Assembly: GCF_000757865.1 (NCBI RefSeq)
Contig: NZ_CP007754.1
Location: 1,590,001 to 1,622,000, forward strand
Reading direction: 5' to 3'
Origin: Prochlorococcus sp. MIT 0801
GTDB taxonomy: Bacteria; Cyanobacteriota; Cyanobacteriia; PCC-6307; Cyanobiaceae
Length of the DNA: 32,000 nucleotides
In this document: positions 11,285 through 21,017 of the stretch, one piece after another
Layout: the number at the start of each line of letters is the position of its first letter
How positions within the stretch are numbered: position 1 is the first letter of the stretch
Translations under genes and position numbers: made by a program
Notes under the pieces: model-generated
What the model was told of the DNA's origin: nothing
Database searches by the model: none
Seen by the model: the letters and a program-made list of their open reading frames with translations, nothing else

Positions 11285-11305
11285 TGAAAATGGAAATCAT
11301 TTTCA
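11285..11305. promoter_or_regulatory. candidate Zur (Fur-family) operator upstream of the G3E-like/phosphoesterase operon
   Basis: Perfect 8-5-8 inverted repeat TGAAAATG-GAAAT-CATTTTCA, 41 nt upstream of ATG 11347 and just upstream of a TATATT -10-like hexamer (11316-11321). The stretch 11282-11303 matches 19458-19479 in the znuC/znuA intergenic region at 18/22 positions. Confidence 0.5.
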
Positions 11306-11346: not shown

Positions 11347-12123
11347 ATGCGTCAGGTCTGGTTAATTTCAGGTCCTCCAGGTTGTGGTAAAACCAGTTGG
11401 ATCCTTGATAGATTAAAAAAACATAATAGTTCTTGTGGTTTTCTTCGCCTTTCAGGATTCTCAGAGAACTCTTTGGAACAGGCAAACTCTAATGAGATTG
11501 ATTATGTATTTCTTAAAGATCAAATACCACAGCTAATAGATTTATCTAAATCCTCTGATCAACTCTGTACTGATCAAGATGGTTTGTTGTTATTCATTGA
11601 GCTTCCACAGTTTTATCTTCCTAAGGAATCTGGATTGGCTGGCATTGATCGACGTGTTATTAACCAGCTTGAGAATTTAAAACTTATACCTGATAAATAT
11701 CTCCATTTTGGCCGTGACAATGAATTGCCAATTGTTGACACATTAAACTTTGAAAAGATCGAATCCTTAAGTATCAACCTCAATGAAACTGTTTGGGATC
11801 CGCCAAGCCTAAATACTTTTTGGTTTGAATTAGTTAATGGTGCATATGGAGATGTATATCGAGCAAAAGCCCTGATGAATATCATTGATGGACGATTTAT
11901 GTTGTTCAACTGGATTGTTAGTCGAAATGGTTCGCAGTTTTTGCAACTAAATAATTTTGCGCCACCCAAAGGGAGACCTCAGCGAATATCGCAACTAATT
12001 ATTCAAGGAAGAAATCTTGATTTTGTAAGCATTAAATCTACTGTCAATCTTTGTCTTGTAAATGATGCTGTATTGCAGTTCCATCAAGCTTCTCTTGGCA
12101 ATCAACAATTAGCAGCAACTTAA
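11347..12123 (+). CDS. degenerate G3E/COG0523-like P-loop protein (Walker A present, no CxCC or NKxD)
   Basis: 258 aa. N-terminal GPPGCGKTSW Walker A, a FIELP segment at the Walker-B position, and a C-terminal part resembling a CobW_C domain (..FWFELVNGAYGDVYRAKALMNI..ISQLIIQGRNLD). The family assignment rests on motif inspection only. Confidence 0.65.
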   Translation: MRQVWLISGPPGCGKTSWILDRLKKHNSSCGFLRLSGFSENSLEQANSNEIDYVFLKDQIPQLIDLSKSSDQLCTDQDGLLLFIELPQFYLPKESGLAGIDRRVINQLENLKLIPDKYLHFGRDNELPIVDTLNFEKIESLSINLNETVWDPPSLNTFWFELVNGAYGDVYRAKALMNIIDGRFMLFNWIVSRNGSQFLQLNNFAPPKGRPQRISQLIIQGRNLDFVSIKSTVNLCLVNDAVLQFHQASLGNQQLAAT

Positions 12124-12135
12124 TAAAGTTTACTT

Positions 12136-12951
12136 ATGAAACAAGCAGTTATCTCATGTTTACATGCCAACCTCCCTGCTGTAGAGGCTGTACTTAACGA
12201 CATCGATCGTCAAGGAATTGATATCATTACTTGCCTTGGTGACTTGGTGGGCTATGGACCGCATCCAAATGAGGTTGTGGAGTTAATAAGAGAGCGTAAT
12301 ATTGCCACCTGTCAGGGTTGTTGGGACGAAGATGTTGTCGATGGACTTGATGCCTGTGATTGTAGCTATCCCTCCCAACTTGCCGAAAGACGTGGACACG
12401 AAGCTCACAAATGGACTACTACAAAGTTGTCGAATAAAAATAAGAGTTTTCTAGCTAGCCTTCCAAAATCTATACGTAGAAATAAATTGCTTTTTGTTCA
12501 TGGCAGCCCTAATAGTCAACATGAATATCTCCTTCCAGATATGGATGCATTTGCAGCGTTAGAAAGAGTAGAAATGGCTGGAGCTGAAACTTTATTTTGT
12601 GGTCATACACACTTACCTTATCTTCGTGAATTAGGAAATGGAACAATTCGAGTAAGTCTTAAAAACAGTCCTAAGAATAAATTAGAAAATAAAGAAATGA
12701 ATTTACCTATGAGAAGGATAGTCAATGCAGGGTCTGTTGGCGAACCGCGTCATGGAGGGATTAATGCTACCTATGTGATTTACGACGATGAAACAAACAA
12801 TATTGATATAAAAGAAGTTTCATATGATATTAATCGAACCTGCAAAGCTATCATAGAAGTTGGGCTACCTCATATATTTGCATGGCGCCTGAGTCATGGC
12901 TTTGAATTTGCAGAACTGGCCGAGGATGCTAGTCATGTGTGTGAAAGATGA
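12136..12951 (+). CDS. metallophosphoesterase (YfcE/MJ0936-like) with Cys substitutions at canonical metal-ligand positions
   Basis: 271 aa. Motif II GDLVGYG, motif IV FVHGSP and motif V CGHTHLPY are intact. Motif I reads SCLHAN (Asp replaced by Cys). Motif III reads GCWDED instead of GNHD/GNCD. There is an extra DACDC pair. Confidence 0.85.
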   Translation: MKQAVISCLHANLPAVEAVLNDIDRQGIDIITCLGDLVGYGPHPNEVVELIRERNIATCQGCWDEDVVDGLDACDCSYPSQLAERRGHEAHKWTTTKLSNKNKSFLASLPKSIRRNKLLFVHGSPNSQHEYLLPDMDAFAALERVEMAGAETLFCGHTHLPYLRELGNGTIRVSLKNSPKNKLENKEMNLPMRRIVNAGSVGEPRHGGINATYVIYDDETNNIDIKEVSYDINRTCKAIIEVGLPHIFAWRLSHGFEFAELAEDASHVCER

Positions 12952-13661
12952 TTGAACGCTGGGCATTAATAAGTGGTTTAAAGGGCGACCTTGAGACTTA
13001 TGCACTTATTCAAAAGAATTTAAAAAAAATTCAAGGAGATATAAAATTATTTGTTTTGGGTGACATGGTAGGAGCAGCAAGAAATTGCGATGCATTGATC
13101 GACCGTCTAATCAATCCTCTCCCTGGCGATTTCAAGCCCCAATGTATTTATGGTTGGTGGGAAGATCAGCTACTTGCAGAACGGGGTTATCGTGGAGAAC
13201 AAAAGGCAGATGCTTTAAGACTAAATGAAGGAGAAAGCGTAGTTAAAGCTCTTGTAAATGCGGTTGATCCGTATTATTTAAATTGGTTGGCTTCTCTTGA
13301 ATTTGGATTTGTCGAATTGGATTGCGGATTGATTCATGGAAGTTCTAAAGACGTTGGAGATTCTCTAACAAAGGACACACCTCCTCTTATCCTTTTGGAC
13401 CGTCTTACTCGACTTGGTGTGAATAGATTGTTTACAGCAAGAAGTGCTCAACAATTTCATCTTGAATTGACTGACGCTGTAGTTAACTCATACGTCAAAG
13501 ATTTAGGTGGTAATCGTAAGCAAGAACAGAGAATGCCTAAGAGAGGAGTTATAGGAATTGGTGCTGGCGCTTATTACACTCTTTATGATGTTGGAAGTGA
13601 TAAAACTCACTTTCTTAATGTTCTTGATCAGCCTAAATCAACTGCAAGGGGATTTGGGTAA
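12948..13661 (+). CDS. metallophosphoesterase-like paralogue, apparently catalytically degenerate
   Basis: 237 aa. Its start overlaps the upstream stop (ATGA). It keeps GDMVG (motif II) and LIHGSS (motif IV). Motif I is ISGLKGD (no Asp or His), motif III is YGWWED, and no GHxH motif V is present. Confidence 0.7.
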   Translation: MIERWALISGLKGDLETYALIQKNLKKIQGDIKLFVLGDMVGAARNCDALIDRLINPLPGDFKPQCIYGWWEDQLLAERGYRGEQKADALRLNEGESVVKALVNAVDPYYLNWLASLEFGFVELDCGLIHGSSKDVGDSLTKDTPPLILLDRLTRLGVNRLFTARSAQQFHLELTDAVVNSYVKDLGGNRKQEQRMPKRGVIGIGAGAYYTLYDVGSDKTHFLNVLDQPKSTARGFG

Positions 13662-14319: not shown

Positions 14320-15518
14320 TCAGAACTCGAAAGTGGTTTTCACCAAAGCTCCATTAACGTCCTCTTTACCATCTTGTTCAATAACAAAAATAGCTGGAGT
14401 AACTGTGACGCTATCGTTCACCGTAAAATCATAAAAAGCTTCCCAAGCCAAAGGATCATCATAACCACTGTCATCTCTATGAGTTTCGGCTGTTCCAATA
14501 CCAAATCCAAACTTATTTCCCTCAATAAACGCATCATTCCATAGGAAGCCAACAGACCATGTATTGCCATCCTCCACCTTATTCATTGCAGTATCAGGAT
14601 TATCCTCGTTTTCAGGATTCTTCCAACCAATACCAGCACTCAAGCTGTAGTCGTCTCCGAATTGATAGCTACCACTAATTCCATAAGACGAGTAATCATT
14701 CACATCAGGAGAATTATCAGTATTCCCGTTATCCGCTTGGGTATAGGCCGCTGCAAGAGTAAATTTATCATCAACCCATGCCAACTGAGTCGTTATGTGA
14801 TCTTTACCTTCATCAGTTAAAAAACCAATCGAAGAATTTGATGCGTCTTCTGAAACGAAGAGAGCAGAAGCAACTAATTTGTCATGAGACCAAGTAATAC
14901 CAGCACCCGCTCCCATTTTTTTGGAATAAGTATCATTGGCCCCTGCCTGGTTTAGTACAAATAAAACTCCATCGCTTGGGTAATCACTTGGCCACACACC
15001 AAGTAAATCATCTTGACGAAGCTTGGGACCAAAAGTTACTTGAATATCATCTCCCAAGGAAACTGATAATAAGCCTTGTGAAGTTCCAACGAATCACTAC
15101 TACTAAAAGCAGTATCTAATCTTGCCTCACCCATCATTCCGAAGGGTTCCATCATGCCAAAATTACCTATCCGAACAGCAGTTTTAAGCATGTCTTGACC
15201 TGTGAAACTGGTCATAAACATTAACTTTGTATCGTAGTGAAAAACTGTCCCATCCTTGTCCTCAGAAGTAGACATTCCACCCATTCCACCCATTCCACCC
15301 ATTCCACCCATTCCAGAATCACTTACGCCATCTATTCCACCCAAAACAAAAGTTGTTTTTCCCATAAACATAGTTGAAGGATATGAATCTCCCATATTCA
15401 TGTGACCACCATGGTGATCATGATGACCTTTGTTCTTTTCACTTCCTGCTTCAACAGCCATTGGAGCCATGAAACCTAAGGCAGTAGGGATTGAAAGTAA
15501 TTGAGCAAAGAGCCTCAT
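14320..15518 (-). pseudogene. outer-membrane porin (cyanobacterial OprB-like beta-barrel, no SLH domain seen) split by a 1-nt frameshift
   Basis: ORFs 15036-15518 and 14320-15057 are the N- and C-terminal parts of one protein. The N part has a signal peptide, HHDHHGGH and (GMG)n. The C part is Gly/Asp/aromatic-rich and ends ..TTFEF, a terminal Phe typical of OM barrels. Adding one T to the minus-strand cagtttccTTggg (about 15056-15060) would give ..YYQFPLGDDIQVTFGPK... Confidence 0.75.
15273..15315 (-). repeat. 9-nt tandem repeat (CATTCCACC, ~4.8 copies) encoding (GMG)n in the porin
   Basis: Direct reading: cattccacc occurs 4 times followed by cattcca. It is in frame and encodes GMGGMGGMGGMGGM on the minus strand. 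Confidence 0.9.
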
Positions 15519-15528
15519 AGGTCTAAAG

Positions 15529-15560
15529 AACTAGCAAAACTAGCAAAACTAGCAAAACTA
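15529..15560. repeat. 9-nt tandem repeat (AACTAGCAA, ~3.5 copies) immediately upstream of the porin start codon
   Basis: aactagcaa occurs 3 times followed by aacta, beginning 11 nt from the porin ATG (15518, minus strand). It therefore lies in the porin 5' leader/RBS region. Confidence 0.9.
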
Positions 15561-15658: not shown

Positions 15659-15681
15659 TGAAAATCAATTTCCATCAAAAT
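15659..15681. promoter_or_regulatory. weak, half-site-level match to the Zur-box-like motif in the porin / WMPC-lipoprotein divergent region
   Basis: TGAAAATCAATTTCCATCAAAAT shares TGAAAAT with both stronger boxes. Its reverse complement (..ATGGAAATTGATTTTCA) resembles 11290-11305 (ATGGAAATCATTTTCA) with a 1-nt insertion. It is followed by TATAGT. Confidence 0.25.
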
Positions 15682-15818
15682 ATAGTCTCACAAAGAAGAA
15701 ATAAAGGATAGTTGGATGATTTAATTACTTTTCTGTTCTAATTTTTCTGAAATACTCAATGACAAAGTTCTAGGCTTGATTAAGCTAAAGACTAGATTTA
15801 CTAGCTAAAACTAGATAA

Positions 15819-16076
15819 ATGGACAAACTTAAGCCTATTCTCTCCACAATTATTCTTTCTTTATCATTTTCACTAATAGGATGTTCAGATAATAGTCAAA
15901 CACAAGGTACTCCCTCTCTTTTTGAGACAAAAATAGAAGCCGAAAAAGCAGCCAAGGATTTCAATTGCACTGGAGCTCATAAAATGGGTGACAAATGGAT
16001 GCCTTGTAAAAGTCATTCTGCTCATGAAGATAAAGAGAATAACAACTCAAGAAATGAACATCACCATCATCACTAG
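15819..16076 (+). CDS. small lipoprotein with a Cys/His/Met 'WMPC' mini-domain (DUF3721-like, from memory) and a C-terminal His5 tail
   Basis: 85 aa. Lipobox SLIGC. Motif FNCTGAHKMGDKWMPCKSH. Ends NEHHHHH. Confidence 0.75.
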   Translation: MDKLKPILSTIILSLSFSLIGCSDNSQTQGTPSLFETKIEAEKAAKDFNCTGAHKMGDKWMPCKSHSAHEDKENNNSRNEHHHHH

Positions 16077-16091
16077 ATTTTCGAACAATAA

Positions 16092-16535
16092 ATGACAACC
16101 AACAATAGTACTAATCAAAAAGAGATCGAAGGTCCTTCGCATTGTGGAAGCAAACCAAAAAAAATTGCATTTGGCATAGCACCACTTGGATTCATTTCCA
16201 TTGGAATTGTTCCCATGGGGATTGTTAGCATTGGAATTGTTCCCATGGGTGTCGTTTCTATTGGCGCTGTAGCCATGGGAGTATTGAATGCATCAATAAT
16301 CGGTATGGGAATATTTTCTGCCGGAATAACAACCATGGGTCTAAAGGTATGGAGTCCAGAAAACAATGCTCTTCAGGAGTCAATCAATCGTTCTAATTCT
16401 TCGTCTTCAAAAAATATATATGCATATCCAACCAAAGCTCAGGCAGAGATCGAAGCCAAAAAGATCGGATGCAATGGTGTCCATAAGATGGGTAAATTAT
16501 GGATGCCTTGTGCAATCCATATAAACCCTAACTAA
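16092..16535 (+). CDS. membrane protein with six tandem Gly/Met decapeptide repeats plus a C-terminal WMPC (DUF3721-like) mini-domain
   Basis: 147 aa. Residues ~27-86 read FGIAPLGFIS IGIVPMGIVS IGIVPMGVVS IGAVAMGVLN ASIIGMGIFS AGITTMGLKV. The C-terminus IGCNGVHKMGKLWMPCAIH is paralogous to the upstream gene. It lies 15 nt downstream of the previous stop. Confidence 0.7.
   Translation: MTTNNSTNQKEIEGPSHCGSKPKKIAFGIAPLGFISIGIVPMGIVSIGIVPMGVVSIGAVAMGVLNASIIGMGIFSAGITTMGLKVWSPENNALQESINRSNSSSSKNIYAYPTKAQAEIEAKKIGCNGVHKMGKLWMPCAIHINPN
16199..16249 (+). repeat. exact 21-nt direct repeat with a 30-nt period inside the decapeptide-repeat region
   Basis: cattggaattgttcccatggg occurs at 16199-16219 and again at 16229-16249. 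Confidence 0.9.
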
Positions 16536-17446: not shown

Positions 17447-18232
17447 CTATCTATTGTTTGGTAGCAAAATCAATGAAATTACACAAAGAACACTAATAAG
17501 AGGGCCAGGAGGCAAATTCATAACCATAGCAAGCGAAAAACCAATGATCGATAAAGCTAATCCAAATATGGAAGATCGAACCATAGCAACCCTCAGAGAT
17601 CTAGCTTTCTGTAAACCCAACAAAGTTGGTGTTGAGAGTAACGCAATCACAAGGATGACCCCAACTGCTGACATTGAGCTCACAATGACAAGTGCAGTGG
17701 TAAATCCCAGAGCTAAATTTAAAAAAGACACATTAACGCCACTTGAAGCAGCTCCTTCTGGGTCTAAACCAATATGAACAAGCTTGTCGTAACCAAAAAG
17801 CATTAAGCAAATGAATGCCGAGAACGCAATCAAAGTTCTTAACAAATCGCTCAAATTTGAAGTTAATAAATCTCCAAACAAAACAGCCTCCAAATCAATC
17901 CTGATTCCAAGTAGAGGTATAAGCAAAACACCAAGTCCCATCGAACCAGCAAGAATTGTATTCATTACAGCTTCATAATTTTGATTTTTTTTATTTGTCA
18001 AACTCTCTGCTGCAATAGCTCCCACTAATCCGCTTAAGACACCTCCAATAGATGGGTCAATCCCAAGCGCCATAGCCAAGGCAAGTCCTGGCAAAACACA
18101 GTGTGAAATTAAATTTACTTGAAGAAGCCTTTTATGAGTTATCAATACAGTTCCCATGGCAGGGCAAAGCACTCCTGAAAAAGAAGTTATCAGAAGAGGA
18201 ATGATCCACCAATTTGTATTGATAAAAGACAT
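17447..18232 (-). CDS. znuB: zinc/manganese ABC transporter permease (ABC-3 family)
   Basis: 261 aa, polytopic, with ZnuB/ABC-3-type sequence (..VLITHKRLL..ISHCVLPGLALA..). It sits in a cluster with zur, znuC and znuA. Confidence 0.9.
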   Translation of the reverse strand: MSFINTNWWIIPLLITSFSGVLCPAMGTVLITHKRLLQVNLISHCVLPGLALAMALGIDPSIGGVLSGLVGAIAAESLTNKKNQNYEAVMNTILAGSMGLGVLLIPLLGIRIDLEAVLFGDLLTSNLSDLLRTLIAFSAFICLMLFGYDKLVHIGLDPEGAASSGVNVSFLNLALGFTTALVIVSSMSAVGVILVIALLSTPTLLGLQKARSLRVAMVRSSIFGLALSIIGFSLAMVMNLPPGPLISVLCVISLILLPNNR

Positions 18233-18285
18233 TAAGCAAATGATTTAGTATGGTCAGTTAGACAGATCAAATTAAGATCTTGCTA

Positions 18286-18687
18286 ATGAATACAAGCAAG
18301 CCTGACATAACTAAGAGACAGCAACAACTTCTCAATGAACTCAAGAGATGTCCTGATGAGTTGAGTGGACAAGAACTGCATAGAAAATTTCATAATGGTC
18401 AAAAGGCAATGGGTCTGACGACTGTATATAGGAACTTGCAAGTGTTAGTAAAGCAAGGTTTGATCCGCTCGAGACACCTCCCTAACGGCGAGGTCCTTTA
18501 TGCCCCAGTTGAAAGAGATATTCATCATTTAACTTGCGTAAGCTGCGGGGAAACTACTCGATTGCAGGGATGCCCCGTCAAAACAATGCACATACCCCAG
18601 AAAGCCTCTAAAAAATTTGAGCTGTTGTTTCATACTCTTGAATACTTTGGCCTCTGCCAAAATTGTTCCCAAGGATTGAATGCTTGA
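18286..18687 (+). CDS. zur: Fur-family metalloregulator, Zur-like
   Basis: Winged-helix region (GLTTVYRNLQVLVKQGLI), then HHLTCVSCG and LCQNCSQ CxxC pairs typical of Fur/Zur. Divergent from znuB. The track ORF begins at TTG 18280; ATG 18286 is preferred. Confidence 0.88.
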   Translation: MNTSKPDITKRQQQLLNELKRCPDELSGQELHRKFHNGQKAMGLTTVYRNLQVLVKQGLIRSRHLPNGEVLYAPVERDIHHLTCVSCGETTRLQGCPVKTMHIPQKASKKFELLFHTLEYFGLCQNCSQGLNA

Positions 18688-19460: not shown

Positions 19461-19479
19461 TGAAAATGATTATCGTTTT
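19461..19479. promoter_or_regulatory. probable Zur box in the znuC/znuA divergent promoter region
   Basis: TGAAAATGATTATCGTTTT contains an 8-1-8 near-palindrome, AAAATGAT-T-ATCGTTTT, with 7/8 arm complementarity. It lies 21 nt upstream of the znuA ATG and 48 nt upstream of the znuC start. Fur-family operators are typically AT-rich palindromes at this location. Confidence 0.6.
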
Positions 19480-19499
19480 AGATACGCTAAATATTCTTG

Positions 19500-21017
19500 A
19501 TGTCGAATTTTTCTAATCAGTCCAAAAAGGCTAAACCCATAATCAATAAAACATTTCTCAAAAGTTCTCTTGTTGCTGGAGCATTTTTATTTTCTGGAAT
19601 TAATCAAAGTGCACAGGCAAATTCAAAACCAATTGTTGCCGTAGAGCCATTAGTCTGCGATGTCGTTTCTGCGATTGCACCACCTTCAACACCTGTAACC
19701 TGCTTAATTGATAGAAAACAAGATGTTCATGATGTCAAAATCACTCCAAGGCAAGCTCAAACACTAAAGAGTGCAAACCAAGTATTTACTCTTGGTTCAG
19801 AGATGACCCCTGCAATGAAAAAATGGTTAGATAATCCTTTAACTGTTGTTGTCGGCGTAAGTGCAATAGAAATAGACGATCATCATGACGATCACGATGA
19901 TCATTCAGCTTCTAAGGATGATGACCACGATGATCATTCAGCTGCTAAACATGACGATCATGATGACCATGATGATCATAGCGATAGCCACGGAGAAGGA
20001 GATTTTGAATGGGCTGGTGTTTTTGATCTTTCAGCAGGAACATACAAATGGTCTTTTGCCAAAGTTGATGGAGACTATGCTGATCCTGCAATGAAAATGG
20101 TTATTCTCAACTCTGGTGATATTGAAGCATCAGAAGAGCTTGCTAAAGAATTATTAGGTTCTAAGAATTCAGAAACCAAACGCAATAATGACAAACTTGT
20201 TGCGCAGGAAAAAGCTTATTTTCTTTCATTCAATGAAAAGAGAGATACCACAACATTTACTGTAGAAATCAAAAAAGCTGGTAAATATGCATTCTTTACT
20301 GAGCATATGCCTTTTGAATTTGAAGCCGACGAACATTTCTTTAAGGATATTTCAGGCGACGATGTTGAACCGATTGCTCAAGTCCCAGATGAAGGCGATC
20401 ACCATCATCACCATGACCATGGTGGGCTAGATCCTCATATCTGGCATGACCCTCATAACATCATCAAGATGGGAAATGTCATTTCTAAAAATATCAATAA
20501 GAAAATTTCCTTCTTTGACAGAGAAACAAAAAAAGTTTTAAAAGAGAGGACTGAAGCCGTTAATTCTATTTTGGAAGATCTCGATTTATGGACTCAAAAA
20601 CAAGTTGCCACAATTCCTACTGATCGAAGGACAATCGTTTCTAAGCACAAAGCGATGGAATATTACGGAGATGCATTTGGCTTGAAGACTTTGAGTCTAT
20701 TAGATTTCCTTGGTGATTCTTCCAGCCTTAGACCAGAGACTATTTCAACGGTAATAGCTGAGTTGAAAGAAGAAAACGTGAACGTATTATTCGCTGAGCA
20801 AAAGCCTCCTTCCAAGCTATTGAAAAATCTGAGCAGACAAACTTCCACCCCTATTGCAAGAAATCAGATCTTTGTTGATGGTCTAATGCTAGAGGGGAAT
20901 ACTGTTTCAGTAGCAGTACACAACACATGTACAATTGTGGATTCACTTGGTGGAGAATGTGACGAGAAAGAGGGTGATGAACTTGAGAGTAAATGGAATG
21001 ATTTAACTAACCCTTAA
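19500..21017 (+). CDS. znuA: zinc ABC transporter substrate-binding protein with a split His/Asp-rich loop and a ~105-aa inserted domain
   Basis: About 505 aa, versus the ~300-340 aa I recall as typical for ZnuA. It has a signal sequence, cluster A-I SBP motifs (DVHDV, GLDPHIWHDP, KHKAMEYYG) and His/Asp tracts DDHHDDHDDH...HDDHDDHDDH and DHHHHHDH. These tracts flank an extra domain starting at FEWAGVF. Confidence 0.9.
   Translation: MSNFSNQSKKAKPIINKTFLKSSLVAGAFLFSGINQSAQANSKPIVAVEPLVCDVVSAIAPPSTPVTCLIDRKQDVHDVKITPRQAQTLKSANQVFTLGSEMTPAMKKWLDNPLTVVVGVSAIEIDDHHDDHDDHSASKDDDHDDHSAAKHDDHDDHDDHSDSHGEGDFEWAGVFDLSAGTYKWSFAKVDGDYADPAMKMVILNSGDIEASEELAKELLGSKNSETKRNNDKLVAQEKAYFLSFNEKRDTTTFTVEIKKAGKYAFFTEHMPFEFEADEHFFKDISGDDVEPIAQVPDEGDHHHHHDHGGLDPHIWHDPHNIIKMGNVISKNINKKISFFDRETKKVLKERTEAVNSILEDLDLWTQKQVATIPTDRRTIVSKHKAMEYYGDAFGLKTLSLLDFLGDSSSLRPETISTVIAELKEENVNVLFAEQKPPSKLLKNLSRQTSTPIARNQIFVDGLMLEGNTVSVAVHNTCTIVDSLGGECDEKEGDELESKWNDLTNP
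19875..19991 (+). repeat. repetitive coding DNA for the His/Asp-rich loop (18-nt exact repeat with a 33-nt period)
   Basis: cacgatgatcattcagct occurs at 19893-19910 and at 19926-19943. The surrounding sequence is gat/cat-rich and encodes (D/H)n. Confidence 0.85.

Follow-up and report, generated by a model that had tools for sequence, protein, structure and literature searches.

A DUF3721 lipoprotein and its Gly/Met-repeat partner as a putative metal-handling pair in the envelope of Prochlorococcus

Two adjacent open reading frames (ORFs), ORF1 and ORF2, lie near the middle of a 32-kb stretch of Prochlorococcus sp. MIT 0801 (contig NZ_CP007754.1, positions 1,590,001 to 1,622,000; 37.5% G+C over the whole stretch), hereafter the window. 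The two small proteins share a mini-domain of the Pfam family DUF3721. In the reading proposed here, to which we give a probability of about 0.45, ORF1 and ORF2 form an extracytoplasmic metal-handling pair in an envelope module with a porin, metal binding being putative. Judged from sequence, the favoured soft metal for the module is Cu(I), and Zn is possible.

The ORF1-ORF2 pair and its shared mini-domain

The pair and its parts are arranged as follows.

15819-16076, + strand: ORF1, 85 amino acids, with a signal peptide, the lipobox LIGC (Cys22), a single DUF3721 domain and a His-rich tail
15921-16019, + strand: DUF3721 domain of ORF1 (residues 35-67), Pfam PF12518, 69.0 bits
16092-16535, + strand: ORF2, 147 amino acids, with an N-terminal motif, a decapeptide repeat, a Ser/Asn linker and a C-terminal DUF3721 domain
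16170-16349, + strand: coding region of the decapeptide repeat, six 10-residue units (ORF2 residues 27-86)
16425-16523, + strand: DUF3721 domain of ORF2 (residues 112-143), Pfam PF12518, 64.2 bits

Both domains exceed the Pfam gathering threshold of 27 bits, which upholds the assignment to DUF3721 made in an earlier note on this DNA; every ORF1 and ORF2 element described there is present where the note had placed it. The two mini-domains are identical at 17 of 32 positions (BLASTP, expectation value E=1e-11), and both contain WMPC. In Pfam the two proteins match DUF3721 and the GLTT repeat only, and in NCBIfam neither matches a family at E<=0.01. Since ORF2 begins 15 nucleotides (nt) past the ORF1 stop codon, the genes probably constitute a single two-gene operon; no terminator-like site is found on the + strand between them.

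ORF1 is a predicted lipoprotein, as the earlier note had called it. Its N-terminus, MDKLKP-ILSTIILSLSFS-LIGC, combines a positively charged n-region, a hydrophobic h-region and a lipobox of the form [LVI][ASTVI][GAS]C (SLIGC, within LSFSLIGC), and its C-terminus is EHHHHH (His5). Among 72 aligned ORF1 homologues, Cys22 is invariant, G21 and L19 are at least 90% conserved, and the poly-His tail is also kept. The Cyanobium homologue has the signal peptide and lacks the lipobox Cys. In ORF2, the N-terminal motif PSHCGSKPKK includes Cys18, which is invariant in a 150-sequence alignment with the consensus P-x-H-C-G-x-K-P-K. The conserved residues of its C-terminal domain are C127, H131, M133, W137, M138, P139, C140 and H143, and the linker before this domain contains at least three His in 73 of 108 proteins.

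A profile search of 1.84 billion representative proteins returns 360 clusters at E<=1e-3, and the conservation figures refer to 166 domain copies from the best 150 of these 360 clusters (50% identity). The family follows the pattern [FY]-x-T-[KR]-x-E-A-E-x-A-A-x-x-F-G-C-x-G-A-H-x-M-G-x-x-W-M-P-C-x-x-H. Numbered within the domain, the best-kept positions are G20 (100%), C18 and A9 (both 98%), C31 (97%), H22 (95%), W28 (93%), M29 (89%), M24 and P30 (both 87%) and H34 (80%), the rest of the H34 column being mostly gaps. Poorly conserved His and Met in a wider alignment, which the earlier note had named as a sign of a simple structural disulfide, are not seen, the residues being kept in 80-98% of the copies. 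DUF3721 is an already catalogued, uncharacterised family with no solved relative, and its description as having no known function agrees with a literature search in which no paper names DUF3721.

Family members most commonly measure 55-110 amino acids. Among the 150 representatives, 78 have a hydrophobic N-terminus, 19 a lipobox and 40 a His-rich tail. Other architectures include lipoproteins with two or three DUF3721 copies, fusions to phage XkdF-type (prohead) proteases, long phage-like proteins and a fusion to a 2'-5' RNA ligase-like protein. Two further fusions are represented by one protein each: a thioredoxin-like (CPHC) fusion in Prochlorococcus MIT 1342, and a fusion of DUF3721 to a Ctr copper transporter in protein P0375 (Ctr PF04145, 54 bits). 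The domain is common among marine phage proteins and also occurs in 31 viral contigs (L088-L118). Phage copies include P0284, P0355, P0335 and P0371, and some phage proteins of about 700 amino acids carry two DUF3721 copies.

Divergent copies, most of them of phage type, lack M24 and M29 jointly (Fisher p=3e-7, phylogeny-uncorrected), with K, R, G, S or A in their place and a gapped H34 column, while C18, H22, W28 and C31 persist. These replacements indicate that M24 and M29 are exposed positions kept for function and not for core packing. We read the domain as two layers: a scaffold of C, H, W and C, and a separable surface-exposed functional set of Met24, Met29 and His34.

Two independent AlphaFold2 models built from diverse alignments agree on a helix followed by a β-hairpin, with predicted local distance difference test (pLDDT) scores of 81-87 (84-87 for the ORF1 domain and 81-84 for that of ORF2). 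The domain runs from the helix through a Cys, a four-residue strand A/V-H-K-M, a two-residue turn and a four-residue strand x-W-M-P to the second Cys; in ORF2 the helix spans residues 115-125 and the hairpin strands residues 130-133 and 136-139. From these models we infer that His22, Met24, Met29 and probably both Cys lie on one face of the hairpin, with Trp28 and Pro30 on the opposite face. A PDB sequence search with the domain gives no match. Foldseek against the PDB gives nothing significant: the best E value is 0.78, and the TM-scores of 0.35-0.47 to cysteine-stabilised α/β peptides mark a resemblance only. No zinc-finger fold or family is matched in the Pfam, PDB sequence or Foldseek searches. 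The C-x3-H-x8-C-x2-H spacing is conserved, and its C, H and C are kept in cytoplasmic phage copies. A disulfide is unlikely in the cytoplasm, which favours the Cys as metal ligands; the two could nevertheless form a disulfide.

The repeat of ORF2 consists of the units FGIAPLGFIS/IGIVPMGIVS/IGIVPMGVVS/IGAVAMGVLN/ASIIGMGIFS/AGITTMGLKV. It is partly encoded by an exact 21-nt duplication, CATTGGAATTGTTCCCATGGG, located as the earlier note reported at 16199-16219 and 16229-16249 and embedded in a tandem array with a 30-nt period (16195-16264). Across ORF2-type proteins, the spacing of successive [M/L]G pairs is exactly 10 residues in 602 of 616 cases, the number of units ranges from 5 to 8, and the uncharged stretch extends over 55-81 residues with no polar loop (150 proteins). 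The Met of every unit, together with Pro31, Pro41 and Pro51, is at least 90% conserved in 150 ORF2-type sequences. An 83-residue antisense ORF (16115-16366, - strand; …IPMGTIPMLTIPMGTIPME…) crosses the repeat, and similar ones occur in loci L046 and L079; it mirrors the repeat codons and is dismissed as a gene, being most likely a by-product of codon periodicity.

The earlier note considered the repeat unassignable. It indeed lacks a known fold, but a Pfam family match exists, the repeat scoring 57.2 bits against the GLTT repeat PF01744 (cut-off 21). The GLTT model has a five-residue xGLTT unit, whereas the ORF2 unit is a decapeptide, [SN]-[IA]-G-[IAV]-V-[PA]-M-G-[IV]-[VL], without the GLTT consensus, and the match may reflect Gly periodicity and composition instead of common descent. 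The structure and function of the GLTT family are not known, and some sources label ORF2-type proteins 'GLTT repeat-containing protein'. In the AlphaFold model, which has low confidence here (pLDDT 50-64), the repeat forms six short β-strands that turn at P-M-G. The family gains or loses units ten residues at a time, which does not sit easily with a constant number of transmembrane helices. A conventional three-helix membrane topology is unsupported on both counts.

Porin, candidate operators and regulators around the pair

Gene context is taken from a scan of species-representative genomes that gives 342 relatives, the counts referring to the best 80 loci. The closest relatives of the window are uncultured and cultured Prochlorococcus genomes. 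ORF1 and ORF2 stand in tandem in about 70 of the 80 loci, mostly 4-27 nt apart, and ORF2 stands alone in about 10. ORF2-type proteins are found throughout marine Synechococcus, Cyanobium and freshwater Synechococcus, and a pair of a small protein and ORF2 also occurs in Cyanobium PCC 7001, CBW1107, Cyanobium gracile and a related genome. The Cyanobium small protein carries the FNCTGAH signature, as does ORF1; the pair is therefore probably ancestral to the Synechococcus/Prochlorococcus/Cyanobium clade. A phage origin of the locus is rejected, as a phage collection gave no DNA match. The elements assigned to the module are as follows.

14320-15518, - strand: Som/OprB-type porin, matching NCBIfam por_somb on both halves, with a His/Met-rich N-terminus
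15531-15552: candidate operator CTAG-N5-CTAG-N5-CTAG ((AACTAGCAA) x3.6), 12 nt upstream of the start codon of the divergent porin
15792-15814: candidate operator CTAG-N5-CTAG-N6-CTAG, ending 4 nt before the ORF1 start codon
16668-17285, - strand: hyp205, 205 amino acids, with a ribbon-helix-helix (RHH)-like N-terminus, a candidate regulator

The N-terminus of the window porin reads GHHDHHGGHMNMG ... GMGGMGGMGGMGGM. A frameshift near 15036-15057 breaks this gene into two overlapping reading frames, and the split porin either represents a pseudogene or reflects a mistake in sequencing or assembly. By tblastn, the porin is a single intact frame of 385 amino acids in loci L001, L002, L007, L010, L030 and L046. 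It adjoins the pair divergently in 23 of 77 loci. In the high-light strain MIT 9302, the pair lies far from the zinc-uptake genes znuABC and is divergent from an intact 385-residue porin, whose mature N-terminus is GGMNHHDHHMHNDSHMNM, with a hyp205 homologue alongside.

Only two CTAG-N5/6 triplets exist in the 32 kb, one at the ORF1 start and one at the porin start, compared with about 0.003 expected and none in 300 shuffles. Related loci totalling 1.37 Mb contain 22 triplets, of which 17 have an ORF1 or porin start no more than 80 nt away. Low-light and high-light clades alike keep the position of the triplets, with changes in the spacer letters. Further loci with CTAG triplets just upstream of the porin and ORF1 starts are L002, L007, L018, L024, L033, L046, L057 and L066. 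The mean number of CTAG per 335 nt is 4.9 where a hyp205 homologue lies within 3.5 kb and 1.1 where it does not (p=3e-12, phylogeny-uncorrected), and CTAG clusters remain where hyp205 is present with the porin non-adjacent. The repeats are so near the start codons that they may act at the RNA level; an Rfam search of the intergenic regions gives noise only and no known RNA family.

Homologues of hyp205 are present in 36 of the 80 loci. The N-terminus is conserved as KRTQLNVSIDPxLL...GKS, and the C-terminal half, a domain with no detectable relative, retains H118, C121, H141, C159, C179 and C181. On the basis of these sequence features, we propose hyp205 as a NikR-like metal-sensing regulator of the module.

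A different regulator would take this role in Cyanobium PCC 7001 and Synechococcus CBW1107. There, a MerR of the heavy-metal clade is divergent from the pair; the window has no MerR. The models for ZntR, CueR, CadR/PbrR and MerR all score 70-77 bits, about half their cut-offs, and the metal of this regulator is consequently not assignable. Cys positions are common to the regulators of both loci. Each locus contains a perfect intergenic palindrome, the arms of which differ between the two in a compensating way. In CBW1107, an OprB porin adjoins the pair.

In Cyanobium gracile and its relative (L085 9501-10862 and L087 8780-10104), MsrQ/MsrP-like genes (Ni_hydr_CYTB and Oxidored_molyb), an ArsR-type regulator and TauE are located 2-4 kb from the pair, and an SBF-family transporter gene lies directly upstream of it.

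The zinc locus beside the pair

The window also places the pair beside a zinc-uptake locus, with a COG0523 GTPase as a further neighbour.

15659-15673, + strand: Zur-box-like palindrome TGAAAATCAATTTCC, overlapping a predicted -35/-10 promoter upstream of ORF1
17447-18232, - strand: znuB, part of the zinc-uptake locus
18280-18687, + strand: zur, matching the Synechococcus WH8102 Zur structure 7NE9 at 153 bits
18715-19413, - strand: znuC, part of the zinc-uptake locus
19461-19475: Zur box AATGAAAATGATTATCGTTT, a 7-1-7 palindrome between znuC and znuA, conserved in 28 of 28 loci
19497-21017, + strand: znuA, part of the zinc-uptake locus

By sequence comparison, the window zur is a true orthologue of the characterised Zur of Synechococcus WH8102. 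The earlier note had drawn on genomic context for a metal role, and this locus makes a weak argument of that kind. Only 30-35 of 80 loci (about 40%) have znuABC and zur within 10 kb of the pair; in more than half, including high-light Prochlorococcus, all Synechococcus and Cyanobium, the pair lies away from znuABC. The porin, hyp205, the CTAG triplets and, in Cyanobium, the MerR accompany the pair more steadily than the zinc genes do. Zur control of the pair is rejected. The site at 15659-15673 has two mismatches to TGAAAATNATTTTCA and is degraded in relatives, where three to six mismatches match the background, in contrast to the fully kept znuC/znuA box, and we judge it a chance match. A suggestion from tblastn that zur adjoins ORF2 in Synechococcus is rejected as well: in marine Synechococcus, this Fur-family neighbour gives about 76 bits with PerR and with Fur against 46 bits with SynZur, fitting PerR/Fur better than the WH8102 Zur structure. 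In that lineage the ORF2-type gene belongs to a conserved block (L079 10461-10937, L081 7468-7923 and L086 6504-6956) with the order radical-SAM/DUF3641, ORF2, convergent Fur-family gene and, in two of the three, metallophosphoesterase. The published Zur/zinc regulon of WH8102 comprises only synw0970-0973 and bmtA/synw0360 (PMC9337993), and neither that paper nor its supplements mention a DUF3721 gene.

The ZnuA homologue is unusually long (506 amino acids), its Pfam ZnuA match falls in two stretches, and residues 88-167 give a weak ZrgA-like match (24 bits); this suggests that ZnuA (19497-21017) carries a large insertion or an additional N-terminal module. After the znuC/znuA box, the second-best Zur-box-like palindrome in the window is TGGAAATCATTTTCA at 11291-11305 (one mismatch). 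It stands 42 nt upstream of an ORF of 258 amino acids without a Pfam match, followed by a metallophosphoesterase gene and an ORF of 237 amino acids. This three-gene block (11347-13661) is present in 0-1 of 80 related loci and hence looks like an insertion.

Proposed metal handling and the competing explanations

In the proposed arrangement, each protein would display one DUF3721 mini-domain, a unit of about 33 residues in which a helix precedes a hairpin with the Cys pair at its base. His22, Met24 and Met29, with His34 just after, would form a soft-ligand site, the alternative being Zn(II) on Cys2His2. The lipid anchor would tether ORF1 in the periplasm, where the poly-His tail could capture metal. 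The unbroken 60-residue Gly/Met repeat would hold ORF2 in the membrane, its DUF3721 domain lying in the periplasm and its N-terminus, which bears a Lys cluster next to the invariant His-Cys motif, in the cytoplasm. In Prochlorococcus, the pair would work with the divergent outer-membrane porin through the His/Met-rich N-terminal extension of the latter. Pair and porin may be controlled by hyp205 via the CTAG-triplet operators, and in Cyanobium by the heavy-metal-type MerR instead. Metal would move from the porin to ORF1, then to ORF2, and on to inner-membrane transfer or sequestration. What the analysis shows is the gene organisation, the conservation, the motif, the predicted fold and the upstream element that ORF1 and the porin have in common; metal binding, the identity of the metal, the topology, the way in which the metal travels and what the regulator does are the parts of this scheme that we infer.

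Cu(I) is favoured because the conserved set of one His, one Trp and two exposed Met is characteristic of copper proteins in the periplasm and not of zinc sites, because the porin N-terminus is rich in His and Met, as in CopB/PcoB, and because each repeat unit of ORF2 bears one Met and one protein, a singleton, fuses DUF3721 to Ctr. Methionine is an unusual zinc ligand. Zinc bound via Cys2His2 is possible and is backed by the window neighbours and by the retention of Cys in phage copies. The periplasmic or membrane metal role that the earlier note derived from genomic context is borne out in part: the porin, the MerR, the His-rich tails and linkers and the one Ctr fusion support it circumstantially, whereas the zinc-locus argument is weak.

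Several observations weigh against metal handling by the pair. The shared ligand face is deduced from strand register and alternation alone, and the conservation values were computed from the top hits of a profile derived from the query, so that they are skewed towards the motif. DUF3721 also occurs in phage proteins made in the cytoplasm, such as the XkdF protease fusions, and an envelope metal role is therefore not inherent in the domain. The Ctr fusion belongs to a singleton cluster and comes from a 1.5-kb contig, for which a metagenome scan gave no relative, and in Synechococcus BIOS-E4-1 the gene context is without metal genes. The repeat of ORF2 is modelled as low-confidence β-strands instead of transmembrane helices and varies from 5 to 8 units, which makes the topology that puts its domain in the periplasm a tentative one. 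The RHH matches of hyp205 all fall below curated cut-offs: DUF6364 in 10 of 10 members (best E=2e-5), RHH_1 in 5 of 10, ParD in 4 of 10 and CopG_antitoxin in 2 of 10. The statistical associations are computed without phylogenetic correction. The literature search yields no paper on DUF3721, PM-24, the GLTT repeat or SYNW2400/2402.

The phage occurrences bear on the alternative that survives best, a non-metal adaptor. Here a disulfide-stapled DUF3721 would mediate protein or envelope contacts (for example with peptidoglycan or the outer membrane) through its Trp/Met/His surface, the metal genes nearby reflecting inherited synteny. The two Cys flank the hairpin as in single-disulfide mini-proteins, and the nearest topologies, although non-significant, are the cysteine-stabilised α/β peptides. 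The domain appears in phage structural and protease proteins and in 2'-5' RNA ligase-like and thioredoxin-like proteins, its linkage to znuABC is restricted by lineage, and some of its contexts are free of metal genes. We nevertheless regard an adaptor as unlikely, since it leaves unexplained the recurrent His-rich tails and linkers, the joint retention of Met24 and Met29, both exposed, among cellular members, the His-Cys motif that is invariant at the N-terminus of ORF2, and the three kinds of metal-sensor-type regulators or His/Met-rich partners that stand beside the pair in different lineages.

The zinc locus lends itself to another explanation, in which ORF1 and ORF2 are accessories of Zur/ZnuABC that, with a function like that of ZinT, ZrgA or AztD, capture periplasmic Zn(II) with Cys2His2 and the His tail and feed it to ZnuA under scarcity. 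In the window, the pair is two genes from znuB, zur, znuC, znuA and the COG0523 GTPase, an order kept in the 30-35 loci counted above, and the adjacent zur is an orthologue of a characterised Zur. The two-Cys/two-His spacing suits a tetrahedral site, the Cys and His22 are kept in cytoplasmic phage copies, and proteins that bind zinc or nickel typically carry His-rich tails. Set against this are the separation of pair and znuABC in most loci, the missing conserved Zur box where the znuC/znuA box is kept throughout, the marine Synechococcus neighbour that is not Zur, and the WH8102 Zur regulon, which is confined to synw0970-0973 and bmtA/synw0360 (PMC9337993). Moreover, the two Met are about 88% conserved although Met rarely binds zinc, and control by MerR in Cyanobium points to metal excess, not starvation. 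A zinc accessory thus appears rather improbable.

A periplasmic redox or oxidative-stress role, in which the Cys pair and the exposed Met would serve as a redox site, sacrificial or signalling, for example for methionine sulfoxide reductase or thiol-disulfide exchange, is very improbable: it can draw on the single thioredoxin-like CPHC fusion in Prochlorococcus, on the Fur/PerR-like paralogue next to the gene in marine Synechococcus and on MsrQ/MsrP-like and DsbD/redoxin genes within 3-6 kb in Cyanobium gracile and a related genome, but the Fur/PerR-like gene is convergent with ORF2 and hence shares no promoter with it, the redox genes are several genes off and in few genomes only, and the His tails, the His/Met-rich porin and the heavy-metal-type MerR are left unexplained.

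Metal handling by ORF1 and ORF2 also admits a bolder version, which we offer as a long shot. DUF3721 would be an unrecognised metal-binding mini-fold, and the repeat a 'methionine ladder', a non-conventional membrane structure passing a soft cation such as Cu(I) from the DUF3721 domain in the periplasm to the invariant His-Cys motif in the cytoplasm; together with the porin, ORF1 and a new NikR-like regulator acting on CTAG operators, it would make up a complete new route for trace metals through the envelope of picocyanobacteria.

Significance and comparison with known systems

Much of the photosynthesis in the ocean is due to Prochlorococcus and marine Synechococcus, which live where copper, zinc and cobalt are in short supply yet potentially toxic. 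The passage of these metals through the outer membrane and periplasm of cyanobacteria is a recognised gap; for zinc, according to Barnett et al. 2012 (PMC3323870), no mechanism is known. The clade-wide ORF2, the lipoprotein ORF1, the His/Met-tipped porin and a candidate regulator with a defined operator provide handles on the question of metals in the envelope. If the pair does handle metal, a known task, the trafficking of metals in the periplasm, would be performed by a new family and fold, joined by an unusual partner in the membrane and by a regulator and operator that are likewise new. Metal binding by the 33-residue domain, if real, would place it among the smallest natural metal-binding folds and would explain the marine-phage copies.

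The closest parallel in layout is the Cop/Pco system of Pseudomonas syringae and E. coli plasmids, where CopB/PcoB forms a barrel in the outer membrane and has a disordered N-terminus rich in Met and His, CopC/PcoC is a small periplasmic copper binder with His and Met, and CopD/PcoD is the inner-membrane partner. The same three tiers would be formed by porin, ORF1 and ORF2, and the expression of Cop/Pco is metal-responsive. There is, however, no kinship of sequence or fold: neither ORF1 nor ORF2 matches a Cop/Pco family of Pfam or NCBIfam, a multicopper oxidase is missing, a 33-residue helix-hairpin stands in place of a cupredoxin-like β-sandwich, and a Gly/Met repeat in place of the eight-helix CopD.

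Periplasmic copper proteins offer a parallel in ligands. CusF binds through a His and two Met with a capping Trp, PCuAC through His2Met2, and Sco through Cys-x3-Cys and a His. DUF3721 similarly keeps C, H, M, W, M, C and H within 17 residues on a β-hairpin, but differs in size and fold, being modelled as a helix plus one hairpin without an OB (oligonucleotide/oligosaccharide-binding) or cupredoxin-like fold. Defensins and scorpion toxins, in turn, have three or four disulfides, whereas DUF3721 has only two Cys. In Ctr1, a metal-capturing ectodomain is followed by a Met/Gly-rich membrane segment and a cytosolic C-terminal HCH motif. ORF2 likewise has a putative metal-capturing domain, a Met/Gly-rich segment and a His-Cys motif, and in P0375 DUF3721 replaces the Ctr ectodomain; ORF2 itself has no hit to Ctr (PF04145), a family marked by MxxxM and GxxxG in its transmembrane segments, and its order is reversed, with the His-Cys motif N-terminal and the domain C-terminal.

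In gene order, the loci of Cyanobium PCC 7001 and CBW1107 resemble MerR/MerP/MerT, with a divergent MerR, a small, predicted periplasmic Cys protein, then a small, predicted membrane protein, and an intergenic palindrome. They differ in that ORF1 and ORF2 give no heavy-metal-associated (HMA) or MerT hit and have neither GMTCxxC nor CxxC, the hydrophobic stretch of ORF2 is free of Cys, unlike MerT with Cys pairs in its three transmembrane helices, and MerA is absent. ZinT, ZrgA and AztD are small, periplasmic and often His-rich proteins encoded beside a Zur-controlled znuABC, as is the window pair. Here the differences are the lack of homology (NCBIfam) and of a conserved Zur box, the conserved Met, and a znuABC linkage found in some Prochlorococcus clades only.

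The candidate regulator and its putative sites also have counterparts. NikR joins an RHH DNA-binding domain to a C-terminal metal-sensing domain, and TrpR/MetJ-type repressors act on tandem operators. The RHH hits of hyp205 are sub-threshold and its C-terminal domain is without a detectable relative; its putative RHH-like N-terminus followed by a conserved His/Cys-rich domain would give a similar plan. The CTAG triplets, as candidate operators, resemble those of the TrpR/MetJ type, being tandem short palindromic cores at a fixed spacing of 9-10 bp.

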